A DNA stretch of 20,708 bases from a virus (IMGVR_UViG_3300045988_020424); one strand, 5' to 3'. Counted from the first letter of the stretch, positions 1-17,184 are shown. Made by a program: numbers and translations. Notes: a model not told the origin generated them from the letters alone.

Positions 1-105
1 AGGTTTCATTGGGGTATACGGTTCGCCGTTGTGATTGACAACATAAAGCTCTGCGCCGTGGAATGGCACGTTGATAGTAGATACTGCTGTTGCTATACTC
101 GTCAT
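1..105 (-). CDS. Antirepressor (Ant-like) N-terminal fragment; gene continues beyond the window start
   Basis: Minus-strand ATG at 103-105 with the frame open to the window edge. Translation MTSIATAVSTINVPFHGAELYVVNHNGEPYTPMKP shows the F-x-G-x-x-L-x-V-V...G-E-P-Y pattern I associate with phage antirepressor N-terminal domains. It lies directly downstream of the Arc-like gene, as in P22 immI. RBS is weak. Confidence 0.5.
   Translation of the reverse strand, partial: MTSIATAVSTINVPFHGAELYVVNHNGEPYTPMKP
71..99 (+). promoter_or_regulatory. Candidate sigma70 promoter for an antisense small RNA (TTGATA, 17-bp spacer, TATACT)
   Basis: -35 TTGATA at 71-76 and -10 TATACT at 94-99 with a 17-bp spacer. 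It sits inside the 5' end of the ant-like gene on the opposite strand, and predicts a start near 106. Confidence 0.3.
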
Positions 106-180
106 GTCGTTAATTCCTATACGTAGTTTTACGATACTGAAGCCCTGACGGTCTGGCCACCGTGGGGCTTCGCTGTTTTA
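106..180 (+). ncRNA. Candidate antisense small RNA (analogous to P22 sar) covering the ant RBS and the arc-ant junction
   Basis: Predicted transcript from the promoter above to a GC-rich hairpin (GAAGCCC 139-145 pairing with GGGCTTC 165-171, plus inner TGACGG/CCGT pairing) followed by GCTGTTTTA. The region is complementary to the ant RBS on the minus strand. Inferred by analogy; no expression evidence. Confidence 0.3.
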
Positions 181-345
181 TGCCACGCTATTCTTCTCAC
201 CAGTGAGTCCATACACTTTCCTCAGCTGATAGATAATCTCTGTATTGAACTTTCGGCATTCTTTTTCGCCATTTCTTTCAATAGCTAACTTCACATCGTC
301 CGGAAAACGAACTCGTCGTTGACACATCTCTTTTGCTTTTTGCAT
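178..345 (-). CDS. Arc/Mnt-family ribbon-helix-helix transcriptional repressor (55 aa)
   Basis: Start re-placed to the ATG at 343-345, preceded by RBS AGGAG with a 7-nt spacer; the ORF-track start at 396 is an upstream extension. Protein MQKAKEMCQRRVRFPDDVKLAIERNGEKECRKFNTEIIYQLRKVYG... resembles P22 Arc in length and in the R-x-P...NG-x-x-x-N-[ST]-E-I pattern (P22 Arc recalled from memory). Confidence 0.7.
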   Translation of the reverse strand: MQKAKEMCQRRVRFPDDVKLAIERNGEKECRKFNTEIIYQLRKVYGLTGEKNSVA

Positions 346-430
346 TTCATATCTCCTAATATGAATGGTTGGCCACACGATGGAAGGATTGTCCATTGAA
401 GGATAAATCCCCGTGGTACAAGTTTTGGTA

Positions 431-452
431 AGCCCGCGCTGCGGGCTTTTTT
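431..452 (+). terminator. Rho-independent terminator, plus-strand orientation
   Basis: Stem AGCCCGC (431-437), loop GCT, stem GCGGGCT (441-447) followed by a T-run through 452. No A-run precedes it, so it is not bidirectional. The same stem sequence recurs in the terminator at 17825-17849. Confidence 0.6.
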
Positions 453-490
453 GTGTCTGCGGATTCCCGCCCGGGTGGCGGTGGCATTCG

Positions 491-516
491 TTAAAAACAA
501 GGCCGCGAAAGCGGCC
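491..516 (-). terminator. Rho-independent terminator of the small membrane-protein gene and late operon (minus strand)
   Basis: Perfect hairpin GGCCGC-GAAA-GCGGCC at 501-516. On the minus strand it is followed by TTGTTTTTAA (plus 491-500). Confidence 0.55.
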
Positions 517-530
517 TGTGACATGTCACG
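517..530. repeat. Copy 1 of 14-bp motif CGTGACATGTCACA (minus-strand orientation; 12-bp perfect palindrome GTGACATGTCAC at 518-529)
   Basis: Read directly from the sequence. It contains the TGA stop codon of the membrane-protein gene (526-528) and abuts the terminator hairpin at 501-516. Confidence 0.85.
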
Positions 531-822
531 TCCCTTTTCTGAATGATAGCCATTCGAAAAATGATGACATTCCACCGCAGACAATAGCAAAGATGATCCC
601 ACCAAAGAAGAGAAGGCCAGCCTGCCACCACTCCCACCGCCATACATCCACAGCGCCAACCATACCAACAATCGCTCCAACAAATGGAATATAGCTCACG
701 ATGAAAGCAATGGGGGCTGCAATTATCCAGTGCAATCCCCACCATGATTCAAGCCCAGCCATAATTGCTGCCAACTGAAAAAGACCAACGACGATATAAA
801 CAATGAATCCTATAGCTTGCAT
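526..822 (-). CDS. Small integral membrane protein (98 aa, about 3 predicted TM helices), function unknown; candidate superinfection-exclusion or accessory protein
   Basis: Start re-placed to the ATG at 820-822 with RBS AGGTGA and a 5-nt spacer. Protein MQAIGFIVYIVVGLFQLAAIMAGL... is strongly hydrophobic. Its C-terminus is not highly charged, which argues against a canonical holin. Position between ejection-protein genes and the immI-like genes parallels sieA in P22. Confidence 0.6.
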   Translation of the reverse strand: MQAIGFIVYIVVGLFQLAAIMAGLESWWGLHWIIAAPIAFIVSYIPFVGAIVGMVGAVDVWRWEWWQAGLLFFGGIIFAIVCGGMSSFFEWLSFRKGT

Positions 823-1018
823 GTAGTCACCTAATTTACCCAGTAAAAATAAGAGGCCTCCCCTCAATAAGGCTTGCAACAAGAACTACTCCCTGCACAA
901 CAAAGATGAACCAGCAAATAGCTTGAGTCTGAGGGTTAAGAAAATATTTGTAGCGGTCAATAAATAACAATCCACCAGAAATTATCACACTCAAAATAAT
1001 TAAAAACACAACACTTCC

Positions 1019-3493
1019 TTATTGCGGAGTGACATCCTGTGGTCGCCACCAGTATGTCTGGTTAAACTCTTTCTTCGAACGTTGCTCCATTTTACGCAAA
1101 TAGCCTGGTGAAAAATACTCCTGCATCTGGTTAAAGATCATGTGATCGAGAGCCGCCTTCAAGTACCAGAGATTCGCACCAGGCATCAAACCTTTCCCCA
1201 GCTTCACCAGATCACCACCAGTCTGCTCACTCTTCCCTTCCACAGCATTTAACGGTATGCCCTGAGCAATCTTCACTACGTCATCAACCAGACCAGCTAC
1301 CGGGCCAAGCATCGACGCCAGCGCGCCGCTTCCGTACCTAGTGTGATCTGACAATAAAAAGTCACCGTAAAGGCCAAGACCACCACCTTTCAGTAGAGCA
1401 CCAAGCCAGAATTTTGCGGCATCTTCTCCTGTCATCTCTCGAGGATTACGACCAGACGCAAGGTCGTTAAGTTGCTGCGACAAAGCGCCAAGAATGGTCG
1501 TACTGGCAATAAACGTCGCAATATATGCCGCACGCCCACCAGCAGACGGCATACCCATAGCGCGTGACCAGTGACGCATAACAACCGAGATAGGGAACGA
1601 TTTAAACAGGAAAACACTTCTCGTTAATTCACCTTTCCATGTTCCACGCTGAATACCAGAACCGGTTATCAGTTGCTCACGTGCTCCCGGTGTAATAACA
1701 GCCATATCAACTTCTTCAGTTACGGCACCGAGCAGTTTACGCATTGCCTCAAATTTCACGCGTTCAGGCTCACCAAGATGTTTAACTGCTGAATCAGGGA
1801 TACGCATAATGCTTTCCGGTGTCAGCATCGTATTATTACCGTTCCCCCAGTCCTCCTGTTTCGCCAGCTTCCATACGCTCCAGTCTGTGTCAGTAATCCC
1901 TTTGCTTTTCAGGATACGAAAATCAGAGTCATCGAGGCTACGAAGGTCTGGTGTCCGTGACACTACTTCTCCCAGGCTTCCCATCATGGTTACGCCATAG
2001 GCGCGCTTGTGCGCATCTGACCATGCTGTAAGCCCACTGACACGCATTACCGCCGTTGCCGCCCAACGAGACACTGACGGCCCCATATTATCCATCGCCC
2101 AGCGGTTAACGCTGCCAAGTAGAGATTCCATCGCCAGACCAGCGCGGCGCGCCCGCGCAAGTTCTGTACGGTTCGTTGGGTCCATAGCTTCAAGCTGGTT
2201 GCGGAATAACTGGTTCATTGGAAGGTTGGTAACCTTCGCAGACAGATACATGGTTCCAAGATCAGAGAACGATGACAGCAACGCGGATCCGAGTCTGCTG
2301 GCAACCAGCCAGTTGCGGATATTGTCAGACCATCGCGCGATGTGCGGATTCGCTACAGGCTGTGTCTTTCCGGAAATAAAGTTGTACAGATTCTCTGTGT
2401 TGTTCGCCAGCCGCTCGACTTTACCGGTTTTACTCGGGTTAGCTGTTGCCGTTTCTGCCTTCACCTGATCAAGAAGAGAGCGGAAAACATGATCGGGGTT
2501 TGGGCCATATGTTTCCACCAGTGCAATATCTTTACTGATACCTTCCAGGTGACCGACCATGATTTCCCATAGAGAGCGATCGCCATAAAGTTGCTGATAT
2601 TGCAGATAGGAATCTGCATCTTTGAAATGTATCTGTCGTGATGCATTACCCCGGTTAGCACGTGCGCCGGAAATTCGCATTCCGGTATCAGTAAGCTTAT
2701 TCAGCCCACCAGTAGCGATCGTGTTATAAGCCTCTCCAAGAAATGCAGACAACTCGGCATCGTTCATCAGTTGTCCATCGACTCGGGTATAATATTTGCG
2801 ATCCAGCTTACCTATAACATCGCTAACCCACTTATCCTTTGATACCGCCCCAACCTTTTCCATAGAATGATGTTGAGGGAGCCCCCAGTTTTCGAGATAG
2901 CCAATGTCCCCACCAGCATCATTAAACCGGCGGCGCAGTAGCTCTGTCACTTCTCTCCACGCCTTAGCACCTTTTCTTGCTTTAGCATTGCCAGTATTTT
3001 GCCCTCGCATTTCATATACCAGGTCACGCACGCCAGCTTCATCTTCAAACAGGCCAAAAAAGCGAGGATCAACTGCTTCAAATGCCTCCTGCAATTGACT
3101 CAATGCATAATCACGAGTGGCTTTTGTTCTGGATTCAACAGAGAGGAAATTCGATTTACCGTCTGCATTAAAAGCAATAGTACGGTTAAGAGCGCCAAGT
3201 TTCCCATCAGCCCCTTGATAGCTATTGATAAATTTATCCAATCTCTGACGTGCGGCTATAGTGAGGGCCACACGACGTTTCTTTAATGCCGCTTCTCGCT
3301 GTAATTCTTCAGATGCCAATTGTGCTGCTCGATATAGCCGCTCTGATTCGGAAAGTTGTCGCCACGACATAGGGTCATCACGAGCAATGGAGCGCATATT
3401 TCGATAAATGCGGTCTTCAATGTTCTGTATTTCTCGCGCCGTTAACATGCGCTGCGCCGCCTGCTGAACCGCTTGTATACATTCCTGTCTCAT
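1019..3493 (-). CDS. Large virion internal / ejection (core) protein, 824 aa
   Basis: Long ORF with ATG at 3491-3493, packed 5 nt after the stop of the upstream gene. Third of three consecutive large proteins after the tail tubular genes, a position analogous to T7 gp15/gp16 or P22 ejection proteins. Function is inferred from position only. Confidence 0.8.
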   Translation of the reverse strand: MRQECIQAVQQAAQRMLTAREIQNIEDRIYRNMRSIARDDPMSWRQLSESERLYRAAQLASEELQREAALKKRRVALTIAARQRLDKFINSYQGADGKLGALNRTIAFNADGKSNFLSVESRTKATRDYALSQLQEAFEAVDPRFFGLFEDEAGVRDLVYEMRGQNTGNAKARKGAKAWREVTELLRRRFNDAGGDIGYLENWGLPQHHSMEKVGAVSKDKWVSDVIGKLDRKYYTRVDGQLMNDAELSAFLGEAYNTIATGGLNKLTDTGMRISGARANRGNASRQIHFKDADSYLQYQQLYGDRSLWEIMVGHLEGISKDIALVETYGPNPDHVFRSLLDQVKAETATANPSKTGKVERLANNTENLYNFISGKTQPVANPHIARWSDNIRNWLVASRLGSALLSSFSDLGTMYLSAKVTNLPMNQLFRNQLEAMDPTNRTELARARRAGLAMESLLGSVNRWAMDNMGPSVSRWAATAVMRVSGLTAWSDAHKRAYGVTMMGSLGEVVSRTPDLRSLDDSDFRILKSKGITDTDWSVWKLAKQEDWGNGNNTMLTPESIMRIPDSAVKHLGEPERVKFEAMRKLLGAVTEEVDMAVITPGAREQLITGSGIQRGTWKGELTRSVFLFKSFPISVVMRHWSRAMGMPSAGGRAAYIATFIASTTILGALSQQLNDLASGRNPREMTGEDAAKFWLGALLKGGGLGLYGDFLLSDHTRYGSGALASMLGPVAGLVDDVVKIAQGIPLNAVEGKSEQTGGDLVKLGKGLMPGANLWYLKAALDHMIFNQMQEYFSPGYLRKMEQRSKKEFNQTYWWRPQDVTPQ

Positions 3494-5301: not shown

Positions 5302-7811
5302 TGCGGAATATCTCCGGAGAATCTCTGACGCTTCTGTGTCAGATCAAGAACAACGGGAGAACCATCATCTTTTAGCAGATAACCAGTACCAAGTTTCACC
5401 AGGTACTGACTATCGCCGTAACTTTGCAAACCATACTGACCAGGCGGTGTTTTTATCCCTGTGCCAACAACTTGTTCATTCCAAGCCTGATTAACCTGCT
5501 TATCGAATTGCTCTGCAGACATTCCCCACGGCAAAAGAACATTCCCCATTCCGTTATAGTCATGCACGCCACCTGTAGCTACGTTAACAGCCTGTTTCCA
5601 GATATCATTGTCAATTTCGCCTGATACCACGCCTTTTTTCGCCATCACACCAGCGTAATAGTCCTTTGCGATCTCGTATGCCATTGATGCCCCCTGAGCA
5701 TCACCAGCAAATGCATTCTTCACCATGTCAGAAAACTCAAGGCGAAGATCAGCATCTTTAGGCATCGGAATACCTTTCGCGTCATCAGTACCTTTACGAG
5801 CCGCCGCGCCAGCAAGAATTGTCTGCGCAGCGGTTTCTGGAGACACGGAAACATCCGGATTAAACCAGTTTTTTTCTGCCAAAATACCACCTGGCTTATC
5901 CATCAGTATCCCGGCAACGGCAGCAGATGGAGCGTTGGCACTGATCTGCTGTAGTGCTGACATATACACCTGCCCACCACCAGTGCTCTGCCTGATGGTA
6001 TCGAGATATGCTGCCTGTTGGGAAACGGGCGCATCACGAAAGAAAACACCGATCTGATTGGCCTCGTCTTTGGAAAAGAACGTCAGTGGAGTGCCATATG
6101 ACTTAGCAAGGTCACTGACCTGAGCAGCACGCAAGGCAACGCTCTGTCCAAAGTTATCCTTATTGCTCATGTCGATAGGCTTTGCCTGTCCGGCGGCAAG
6201 AGAGAACTGTACAGGATCAGCCTGTCGCTGCTTTATCACCTGACTTGCAGCCGACACAACGTTGTCATAAAGAGCGGCTCGTGCCGCATAACCCTCCCCT
6301 GTCTCACCAGTATCCGGGCGTAATTGCTCAACATATGCTGTAATGCTGCTTGTCGGCATGTTGCGGAAAGAGCCTATATACTGTCCGGCGATTTGCGTAT
6401 TTCTGAACTCGGTATATCGCAGGTTTCCTTCTCTTACTCCATAAGCTGCAATAAAATCAGCCTCACCAGGTGGGTTAGGAAATTCAACGCCACGCATATA
6501 CGCAGCTGTCGCATCGCGAACCTGGCTGTCAATCATCGTTTTATATTCAGCCTGCTGCTGCCGACGCAGTTGATCCGCCTGTCGCATAAAACTTGCCTGC
6601 GCCTCAGGAGATGCCGCATCGAATGCTGCATTACCGGTATAGCGTTTGGTGTTGGTTGGAATTGTTGATAAACCAAGTGCTGCACTGACACCAGCAGTTA
6701 ACTGCTGATCACTGTATGGCTGGCTACCGTTCTCATGATGGATAATGGCTGCACAAAGCGCCTTCAGGGTATCAGGATTAGATGCATCGAGAGGCTCATC
6801 AGCAGAAACGCCAAGTTGTTCGCACACTGCTTTGATATACGACATAGTGTCATTTTTATCAGTAGGCGGTGCCCAGCGATTAATTATCTCGCTGACGGTA
6901 TCAATACCCTGCCTCTGATACGACATCAGGTTCCGCCCTAATGCACGAATCCCGTGTTCAGGTGTTTCGAATTTAGCAAATCGACCATCATCACCGGTCT
7001 GGCCTACCCACGGATTAGTTTTGCTGTATTCGAGATTTCCTGGGTTATTGTTGCGTATGCCACGGGCACGCTCGGAAGAGTCACTATCTGCTACAGCACG
7101 GCGAGCTCCAGCAGCAGTATCACTTAACTCGCCATTACTTTGGATGAATGCGGTCGCATTGTTTGCCGACCACTGGGACAATGCAGCATCAGCAACCTTC
7201 TCTTTAAACTCGATTTTCTTGGCCTGGATTTGCTCGTCACTCCAGCCATGTGCAATGCCGTAATCCTCAATTTGCTGGAAAGTTTGCTTATTAGCCAATA
7301 CGTATGCGGCGTTGTCGCCATACAATGCTGCGGCATTTTTACCATTGTTCAGCAGCGTAGCCTGAAACTGGCCTTCTTCGTAGGCATTTATTTGCCCTAT
7401 CTCGTGCCGCCCGGCCTGCGTAGTGAACTGAATGCGCTGCTGCTGCGCCTGCTGCATGAAAGCATTACGAGCCTGTTCATCCGGCAGCGACATAGCCAGT
7501 TGTTCGACCTGAGCATCAAACTGCTGCGTATACTCCTGACCTTTTCCAATAGCATTTTTCCCTTTCAGGTTAAGCAATCCTGTTTCAGGATTATTCAGCA
7601 GATCACTGCTTATCTGACTGAGGTTAAGAGATGCCTCCTGAGCCAGAGCGATATTGGCACGCTGTTTTGCCTGACCAAAAACATCAATTGCCTCTGTCCC
7701 TGCCCGAACAAAAGCATCACCAATACCTGGCTGAGAAAACGTCTGCAAGCCTGCTGACTGAACTCCACGGCTCTGAACCTGACGGCCGGATACTGTTGGT
7801 ACGACTGGCAT
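5298..7811 (-). CDS. Large virion internal / ejection (core) protein, 837 aa
   Basis: Start re-placed to the ATG at 7809-7811 (MPVVPTVSG...) with RBS GGAGG and 6-nt spacer, overlapping the upstream stop (TAATG). The ORF-track start at 7886 is an extension. Function by position. Confidence 0.8.
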   Translation of the reverse strand: MPVVPTVSGRQVQSRGVQSAGLQTFSQPGIGDAFVRAGTEAIDVFGQAKQRANIALAQEASLNLSQISSDLLNNPETGLLNLKGKNAIGKGQEYTQQFDAQVEQLAMSLPDEQARNAFMQQAQQQRIQFTTQAGRHEIGQINAYEEGQFQATLLNNGKNAAALYGDNAAYVLANKQTFQQIEDYGIAHGWSDEQIQAKKIEFKEKVADAALSQWSANNATAFIQSNGELSDTAAGARRAVADSDSSERARGIRNNNPGNLEYSKTNPWVGQTGDDGRFAKFETPEHGIRALGRNLMSYQRQGIDTVSEIINRWAPPTDKNDTMSYIKAVCEQLGVSADEPLDASNPDTLKALCAAIIHHENGSQPYSDQQLTAGVSAALGLSTIPTNTKRYTGNAAFDAASPEAQASFMRQADQLRRQQQAEYKTMIDSQVRDATAAYMRGVEFPNPPGEADFIAAYGVREGNLRYTEFRNTQIAGQYIGSFRNMPTSSITAYVEQLRPDTGETGEGYAARAALYDNVVSAASQVIKQRQADPVQFSLAAGQAKPIDMSNKDNFGQSVALRAAQVSDLAKSYGTPLTFFSKDEANQIGVFFRDAPVSQQAAYLDTIRQSTGGGQVYMSALQQISANAPSAAVAGILMDKPGGILAEKNWFNPDVSVSPETAAQTILAGAAARKGTDDAKGIPMPKDADLRLEFSDMVKNAFAGDAQGASMAYEIAKDYYAGVMAKKGVVSGEIDNDIWKQAVNVATGGVHDYNGMGNVLLPWGMSAEQFDKQVNQAWNEQVVGTGIKTPPGQYGLQSYGDSQYLVKLGTGYLLKDDGSPVVLDLTQKRQRFSGDIPQ

Positions 7812-17107: not shown

Positions 17108-17184
17108 GTGGCATTAGCTCAGTTGGACAGAGCAACCGCCTTCTAAGCGGTTGGTCGCAGGTTCGAATCCTGCATGCCACGCCA
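17108..17184 (+). tRNA. tRNA-Arg (anticodon TCT, reads AGA), 77 nt with encoded CCA
   Basis: Manual fold: acceptor GTGGCAT/ATGCCAC, D-stem GCTC/GAGC, anticodon stem ACCGC/GCGGT, loop CTTCTAA (U33, anticodon TCT, A37), variable loop TGGTC, T-stem GCAGG/CCTGC, T-loop TTCGAAT, discriminator G, CCA. D-arm and T-arm match E. coli argU as I recall it, with different acceptor and anticodon stems. Confidence 0.9.

Follow-up and report, generated by a model that had tools for sequence, protein, structure and literature searches.

By comparing the left end of a 20,708-nt viral contig (IMGVR_UViG_3300045988_020424; hereafter the window, i.e. the whole stretch of DNA that was analyzed) with phage and bacterial genomes, we identified what its sequence marks as the core of a genuine P22-type arc-sar-ant cassette, a true homologue of the immI region. 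The cassette is likely to be a recently orphaned, probably silent variant of the "ant moron", from which a recombination joint at positions 357/358 appears to have taken the promoter, the operators and the gene for the partner repressor. The identities of the genes, the presence of sar, the joint, the source of the sequence at 358-455 and the disappearance of the native control region are established. The kind of element was already known, and arc and ant had been annotated by similarity in phage TL-2011b earlier.

All genes in the first 3.5 kb of the window are located on the minus strand. The arc-like ORF occupies positions 345..178, with its ATG at 345-343, its stop codon at 180-178 and a GGAG Shine-Dalgarno sequence at 356-353, which is the last native sequence kept upstream of the gene. 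It encodes a homologue of ribbon-helix-helix (RHH) repressors of 55 aa, as indicated by both profile and pairwise searches. A longer ORF of 72 aa, starting from an ATG at 396, was rejected as an ORF-calling artefact that crosses the joint, since the 55-aa length is kept in 13 relatives and the N-terminal ORF extensions vary with the context. When searched alone, the window protein scored 12.8 bits (E 0.11) against Pfam Arc (PF03869), which is below the gathering threshold of 20.4 bits, while 10 of the 13 members of the Arc-like family matched the same model (best E 1.8e-4). The protein also matched the PHROG family 'Arc-like repressor' (E 3.4e-5), P22 Arc itself in BLASTP (E 4e-5, with residues 1-40 in register and 33% identical) and in hhalign (E 1.3e-4) and, again using BLASTP, the RHH domain of the Mnt-like protein encoded next to native copies of the cassette (E 1e-5). 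When a profile of the 13 relatives was compared to PDB, P22 Arc entries were retrieved, weakly (E 0.06-0.15); phmmer of the single 55-aa sequence against the same database returned spurious matches only, piling up over TAL-effector repeats, and these were discarded. Membership in the Arc family is based on the family-level and pairwise matches, which identify the gene directly upstream of ant as that of a small RHH protein of the Arc type. The AlphaFold2 monomer model of the protein had a pLDDT of 62 and consisted of two helices with no strand, and Foldseek gave no match for it in PDB. RHH proteins are obligate dimers, so a poor monomer model is to be expected, and we regard the structure prediction as uninformative.

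The ant ORF starts with an ATG at 105-103 and continues for 35 codons (MTSIATAVSTINVPFHGAELYVVNHNGEPYTPMKP) before it runs off the left end of the window, where the contig end cuts it (1..105, minus strand). Already these 35 N-terminal residues match the Pfam domain P22_AR_N (E 3e-4). In genomes with DNA that is 100% identical over 1-357, the full Ant has 312 aa, which places the C-terminal 277 aa outside the window. The full-length homologue in an E. coli epsilon15-like prophage (L003:5167-6105) matches P22_AR_N with an E of 6e-45 and the PHROG anti-repressor Ant with an E of 8e-77, and it is 39% identical to P22 Ant over 217 aa (E 2e-37). This last alignment begins at residue 1, which supports ATG 105 as the start of ant. 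Together, the matches assign the gene product to the P22_AR_N antirepressors. The first-pass annotation had described a 55-aa Arc-like protein followed on the same strand by an Ant-like N-terminus, and this description is borne out, as both come out as homologues of their P22 namesakes; neither of the outcomes named there as refuting it, a 55-aa protein without RHH signatures in profile searches or a downstream ORF outside the antirepressor families, was observed. No match to NCBIfam was found for the Arc-like protein or for Ant.

In the region between the two genes, the plus strand harbors the antisense RNA sar (107-174), which is matched over the full length of the Rfam model RF00262 (model positions 1-68; 44.8 bits, E 1.3e-7, gathering score 43). 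A Psar-like promoter, TTGATA-17-TATACT with a TG extension, was identified by promoter scan at 71-99 on the same strand, i.e. within the 5' end of ant and pointing to arc. It scores 10/12, and the transcription start predicted from it (~106-107) coincides with position 1 of the Rfam match. The RNA is antisense to both the intercistronic region of arc-ant and the Shine-Dalgarno sequence of ant, and its region can be aligned with the arc-ant intercistronic/sar region of P22 immI. A terminator hairpin at ~138-170 with a U-run at 176-179 completes the unit (fold -23.5 kcal/mol, z -2.4). What the comparison identifies is an antisense RNA that covers both the intercistronic region and the ant ribosome binding site and has its own predicted promoter inside ant. 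Both sar and the minus-strand terminator of the late operon (see below) had been overlooked in the first-pass annotation.

Part of this region is also found in the P22-like phage CUS-3 (CP000711), where positions 6391-6560 correspond to window 1-171; over the 5' end of ant and sar, the two share 92-95% identity (94.7% over 1-152, and 91.9% over 1-171 by megablast). The match adjoins a feature annotated as 'boundary sequence' (bsq2), and CUS-3 has no arc at this place, suggesting that the stop codon of arc coincides with a mosaic boundary.

The resemblance to P22 immI (mnt, Pant/Pmnt, arc, sar, ant; X01916) comprises the order of arc and ant, the length of the intercistronic region (72 nt here, 68 nt in P22), a sar RNA with its promoter inside the 5' end of ant, and the position after late-operon genes of the virion/ejection type. 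On the other hand, P22 has mnt, Pant and operators, all three of which are missing from the window, and it uses Oarc and Omnt, whereas the native form of the cassette described here uses a 143-aa Mnt analogue and CAC(G/C)GTG boxes. The host phage differs as well, being a phiV10/epsilon15-like podovirus (Uetakevirus) rather than a P22-like phage. Over positions 456-20708, the window shares ~97% identity with the late (structural) operons of phiV10, phiv142-3, HEMP4 and further members of Uetakevirus (epsilon15-like phages). The cassette is preceded by genes for three large virion proteins, one of which has a region of the transglycosylase type. The last gene of the late operon (526..822, minus strand) encodes a hydrophobic protein of 98 aa (phrog_3075), also present as a 98-aa CDS in the relatives L002 and L007, and marks the end of the phiV10-like operon. 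The placement of the cassette after ejection-type proteins and a small membrane protein, as given in the first-pass annotation, agrees well with this operon. On its right side the cassette is therewith found in the position of an ant moron, following virion/ejection-type genes and a membrane protein, while its left side lies beyond the contig; in relatives, a tail fibre or tailspike gene is located 2.7-3.6 kb beyond ant. Separately, a tRNA-Arg gene (anticodon TCT) was found at 17108-17184 on the plus strand, opposite the late operon in an ORF-poor gap, and the annotations of phiv142-3 and the O157 typing phages include it as well.

The ant morons of P22-like phages make up a hypervariable region at the distal end of the late operon, as does the cassette in the window, and are subject to high flux, with partial or degraded versions from which mnt, arc, ant or several of these are missing (Villafane et al. 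2008, PMC2629481). Compared to these, the present variant lacks the promoter/operator region and mnt, has arc, sar and the 5' part of ant intact, and resides in a Uetakevirus backbone. The joint loss of promoter and repressor fits the known high turnover of ant morons. An antirepressor under antisense RNA control is likewise found in the immI region of P1 and P7 (c4 antisense RNA-icd-ant), although this involves another RNA family and another antirepressor family, has no Arc, and is not found in the window. Certain relatives do carry a module of this kind: isrK and C4 RNA genes (Rfam, 68-80 bits) are located directly upstream of a Bro-N gene in L001 (4010-4195), L003 (3000-3181), L013 (7172-7354) and L015 (6917-7102). 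Situated 2-3 kb beyond ant, it constitutes a second, P1-immI-like antirepressor module, and with arc-sar-ant besides it these related prophages carry two antirepressor systems that differ in type.

The native form of the cassette, which is found circulating in prophages of enterobacteria, could be defined from its relatives. At least 19 complete E. coli genomes contain the sequence of window 1-357 at 100% identity, and phage TL-2011b, whose annotation names the two genes 'Arc-like repressor' and 'anti-repressor Ant', matches it at 98.9%; TL-2011b (gp41/gp42) and the E. coli epsilon15-like prophages (e.g. CP027552, L003) together span 98.9-100% DNA identity over this range. In native copies, a divergent Arc-family (Mnt-like) gene of 142-147 aa (143 aa in the E. 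coli copies) is situated ~120 bp upstream of arc (L003, L004, L008-L012, L013, L014 and L016-L020). The protein matches Pfam Arc with an E of 1e-14, while no known domain was found in the C-terminal 100 aa of the 143-aa form. The divergent gene also accompanies more diverged copies of the cassette, with arc proteins that are 76-79% identical, which sit in a siphovirus-type prophage tail-gene cluster and in a P22-like Citrobacter prophage. The native promoter facing arc is TTGACA-17-GACAAT/GACACT with an extended -10 TG (10/12), and a second, divergent promoter in the same intergenic region faces the mnt-like gene. The promoter facing arc is flanked and overlapped by three CAC(G/C)GTG boxes with a spacing of 25 bp, located at ~-78, -53 and -28 from the arc ATG. 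This control region (L003 6346-6465, with equivalents in L008 and L010-L013) is conserved across E. coli, L008-L010 and Citrobacter, and its layout identifies it as following the Pant/Pmnt logic of P22 with other operator sequences. A CACCGTG box at 158-164, in the sar hairpin, was considered as a fourth operator and rejected, as it is conserved neither in the 98% allele nor in the diverged cassettes.

Two of the relatives deviate from this arrangement. Relative to L003, TL-2011b (L001 ~7440-7450) carries one additional G close to the 5' end of its mnt-like gene, and its record annotates only a 113-aa ORF without an RHH domain; the extra G is either a frameshift or a sequencing error in the maintenance-repressor analogue of this Stx2 phage. 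A second mnt-less variant of the cassette is found in a complete E. coli genome (L015 3653-4000), where native sequence starts at the -10 element and two boxes, the -35 element and the mnt-like gene having been replaced by other DNA. It fits a pattern of co-loss of promoter and mnt, but is not decisive, since the extended -10 is retained.

While TL-2011b and the E. coli prophages keep the native promoter, the boxes and the divergent Arc-family gene, the window has the remains of a DUF4760 gene in their place. Homology to the native cassette ends at 357/358, 12 nt before the arc ATG and just outside the Shine-Dalgarno sequence, with ranges of homology of 1-357 on one side and 358-1100 on the other, and with zero microhomology at the joint in the alignment. 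Upstream of arc, the window contains neither the TTGACA-17-GACAAT promoter nor any of the three CAC(G/C)GTG boxes, and it also lacks the divergent mnt gene, which was lost at the joint. On the other side, 358-455 is 100% identical to the plus-strand 3' end of a DUF4760 gene plus its terminator in phiV10-like prophages that have no arc there. The corresponding CDS in L002 (4535..5074) matches Pfam DUF4760 (PF15956) with an E of 8e-31, and the intact gene encodes 179 aa in both L002 and L007; E. coli 214-4, which is collinear with window 358-1100, has the intact 179-aa gene. No complete DUF4760 ORF was found in the window. What is left is a 3' relic at 358..431 (100% identical to L002 5001-5074) without a start codon, consisting of the last 23 codons and the stop codon (360-431, with TAA at 429-431), and translating as YEWLATRWKDCPLKDKSPWYKFW followed by the stop.

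Beyond the relic, terminator scans identified two intrinsic terminators. The first (430-454, plus strand) belongs to the DUF4760 gene and accompanies its intact versions in L002 and L007; read in the minus-strand direction, its hairpin has no U-tract. The second (517..500, within 492..517 on the minus strand) terminates the late operon upstream of arc and consists of a 7-bp GC stem followed by UUGUUUUU (fold -16.5 kcal/mol, z -3.65). Weak matches to Rfam Trp_leader at 364-454 and 493-610 were dismissed, as these merely reflect recognition of the terminator hairpins. A promoter scan facing arc over 330-560 found no site scoring at least 9/12, the best being TGGACA-19-AACCAT (395..365) with 8/12. 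The joint happens to create a perfect 7-bp inverted repeat, TTCATAT-N6-ATATGAA (346-365), which would put the GGAG in the loop of a weak A/U hairpin on the arc mRNA and is probably coincidental.

We propose that the cassette was fused by illegitimate recombination, 12 bp ahead of the arc ATG, with the 3' end of a phiV10-like (Uetakevirus) DUF4760 gene, and that the promoter, all three boxes and the mnt-like gene were removed in the same event, so that arc is now preceded only by the remnant of a coding sequence and by two terminators, those of the DUF4760 gene and of the late operon. The event was presumably recent, since both halves are 100% identical to intact versions elsewhere. Judging by the consensus scans, arc and ant would now be essentially untranscribed, receiving at most leak-through from the late operon, while sar, with its own promoter intact, would still block any residual translation of ant. 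The silence of arc-ant is probable on this basis; weak or non-sigma-70 promoters, or read-through of the terminators, are conceivable. In P22 genetics, an active Pant without Mnt prevents stable lysogeny. Here, the loss of the maintenance repressor may have been tolerable, since the promoter under its control would have gone in the same event. Signs of decay are absent from arc, sar and the retained part of ant, as would be the case if the event were very recent or if the genes continued to function.

Continued function could take the form of a rewired cassette, in which arc and ant would be expressed only by read-through from the late operon during lytic growth and remain silent in a lysogen without Mnt. 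Ant made late could then act in trans on the repressors of co-resident prophages. Consistent with this, arc-ant is placed directly downstream of the late operon in the same orientation, the genes are intact, the joint keeps the arc Shine-Dalgarno sequence exactly, and the second mnt-less variant (L015) also lacks the native -35 element; furthermore, late transcription in P22 traverses the ant moron (PMC2629481). We nevertheless consider such rewiring unlikely, given that a strong intrinsic terminator (492..517) and a second GC hairpin are placed between the late genes and arc, and that sar should still block the translation of ant. Moreover, convergent genes face the end of the late operon at this point in phiV10-like relatives, and read-through therefore does not belong to their usual arrangement. 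A more far-reaching version, which we regard as very unlikely, would be that the one-step loss turned the antirepressor cassette into a passenger of the late operon, with read-through Ant inducing heterologous prophages in trans and sar as the sole brake. If true, the recurrent mnt-less variants, i.e. the window contig and L015, would mark a repeatable evolutionary route and not decay.

Orphaning of the cassette, as well as rewiring, presupposes that the joint is real. No copy of it was found in 5,426 complete E. coli genomes, in 50,697 phage records or in IMG/VR, and it is known from only two JGI metagenome contigs, the window and L005, which are possibly not independent. L005 is identical to window 11-459, a block of 449 bp that includes the joint, and it carries the exact 72-aa ORF spanning it. 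An exact 24-mer across the joint found nothing in IMG/VR and had no match in the JGI metagenome collection, the latter being a weak null result as that collection evidently contains neither the window nor L005, JGI contigs that both carry this 24-mer. The one exact match of the 24-mer in GTDB genomes, to a Bacteroides sp. scaffold (L021 1597-1620) with no other similarity to the window, was put down to chance.

Past the shared block, L005 continues into an ssrA-adjacent P4-type integrase. An exact 21-mer, CTGCGGGCTTTTTTGTGTCTG, is shared between the DUF4760 terminator (window 439-459; L005 1258-1278) and the region just after ssrA in E. coli (L022 ~1490-1510). L005 was at one point considered as a second genomic context for the cassette, but was rejected as such, since the switch takes place at this 21-nt identity between the DUF4760 and ssrA terminators and a mis-join is likelier than biology. 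The switch is either a k=21 mis-assembly or the trace of a past capture of ssrA-flanking DNA, and L005 was used solely as support for the 357/358 joint.

Should the joint be an assembly or library artefact, the cassette would in reality still have the mnt-like gene and its native promoter, and the DUF4760 gene of the phiV10-like phage would be intact. Both halves are indeed 100% identical to sequences that are common in E. coli, the joint occurs in no isolate genome or phage record, and both the window contig and L005 break off inside ant, at points no more than 11 nt apart. The switch of context in L005 at a 21-nt repeat is moreover typical of a de Bruijn graph mis-join, indicating that these assemblies may be error-prone. 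However, a mis-join of this type cannot have created the 357/358 joint, since the two sides share no k-mer there. The identical 449-bp block with the joint is found in two contigs, and the right flank (358-1100) is collinear with the complete genome L007. We accordingly judge an artefactual joint to be quite unlikely.

The sequence immediately upstream of arc had been given another meaning in the first-pass annotation, in which direct repeats GAAGGAT (383-389 and 398-404) and an inverted repeat ATGGA-N7-TCCAT (380-396) were candidate operators. The motifs are present, but an operator role does not hold up, as they are chance-level repeats within the DUF4760 relic. Within 85 bp, shuffled sequence contained a direct repeat of at least 7 nt in 8.6% of cases and real 85-bp segments of the contig in 15%, and inverted repeats with arms of at least 5 nt occurred in ~50% of both; the two GAAGGAT copies are Lys-Asp codons of the DUF4760 frame. 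Similarly, the hairpin and T-run at 431-452 do exist, but they belong to the DUF4760 gene and do not take the place of mnt, as had been suggested. The statement that a divergent mnt-like gene is missing holds for the window, though not for the native form, where such a gene is found ~120 bp upstream of arc. A self-contained immI-like module with its promoter and operators in 346-430, in which Arc would regulate itself and work without Mnt, is extremely improbable in spite of the motifs, the retained Shine-Dalgarno sequence of arc and the very weak promoter-like TGGACA-19-AACCAT (395..365) that overlaps the inverted repeat, considering that 358-431 is the in-frame 3' end of DUF4760, 100% identical in prophages without arc, that the repeats occur at chance level, and that the conserved boxes and TTGACA promoter of the family are all missing here.

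The main value of the analysis is corrective, in that the operators and the terminator once proposed for this cassette are relics of another gene. For the Arc/Mnt family, the comparison defines the real control region, i.e. three CAC(G/C)GTG boxes, a TTGACA promoter and a 143-aa Mnt analogue. Lastly, if the orphaning proposed here is correct, the contig would exemplify a way for an antirepressor cassette to shed its maintenance repressor while lysogeny survives, the promoter being lost alongside.
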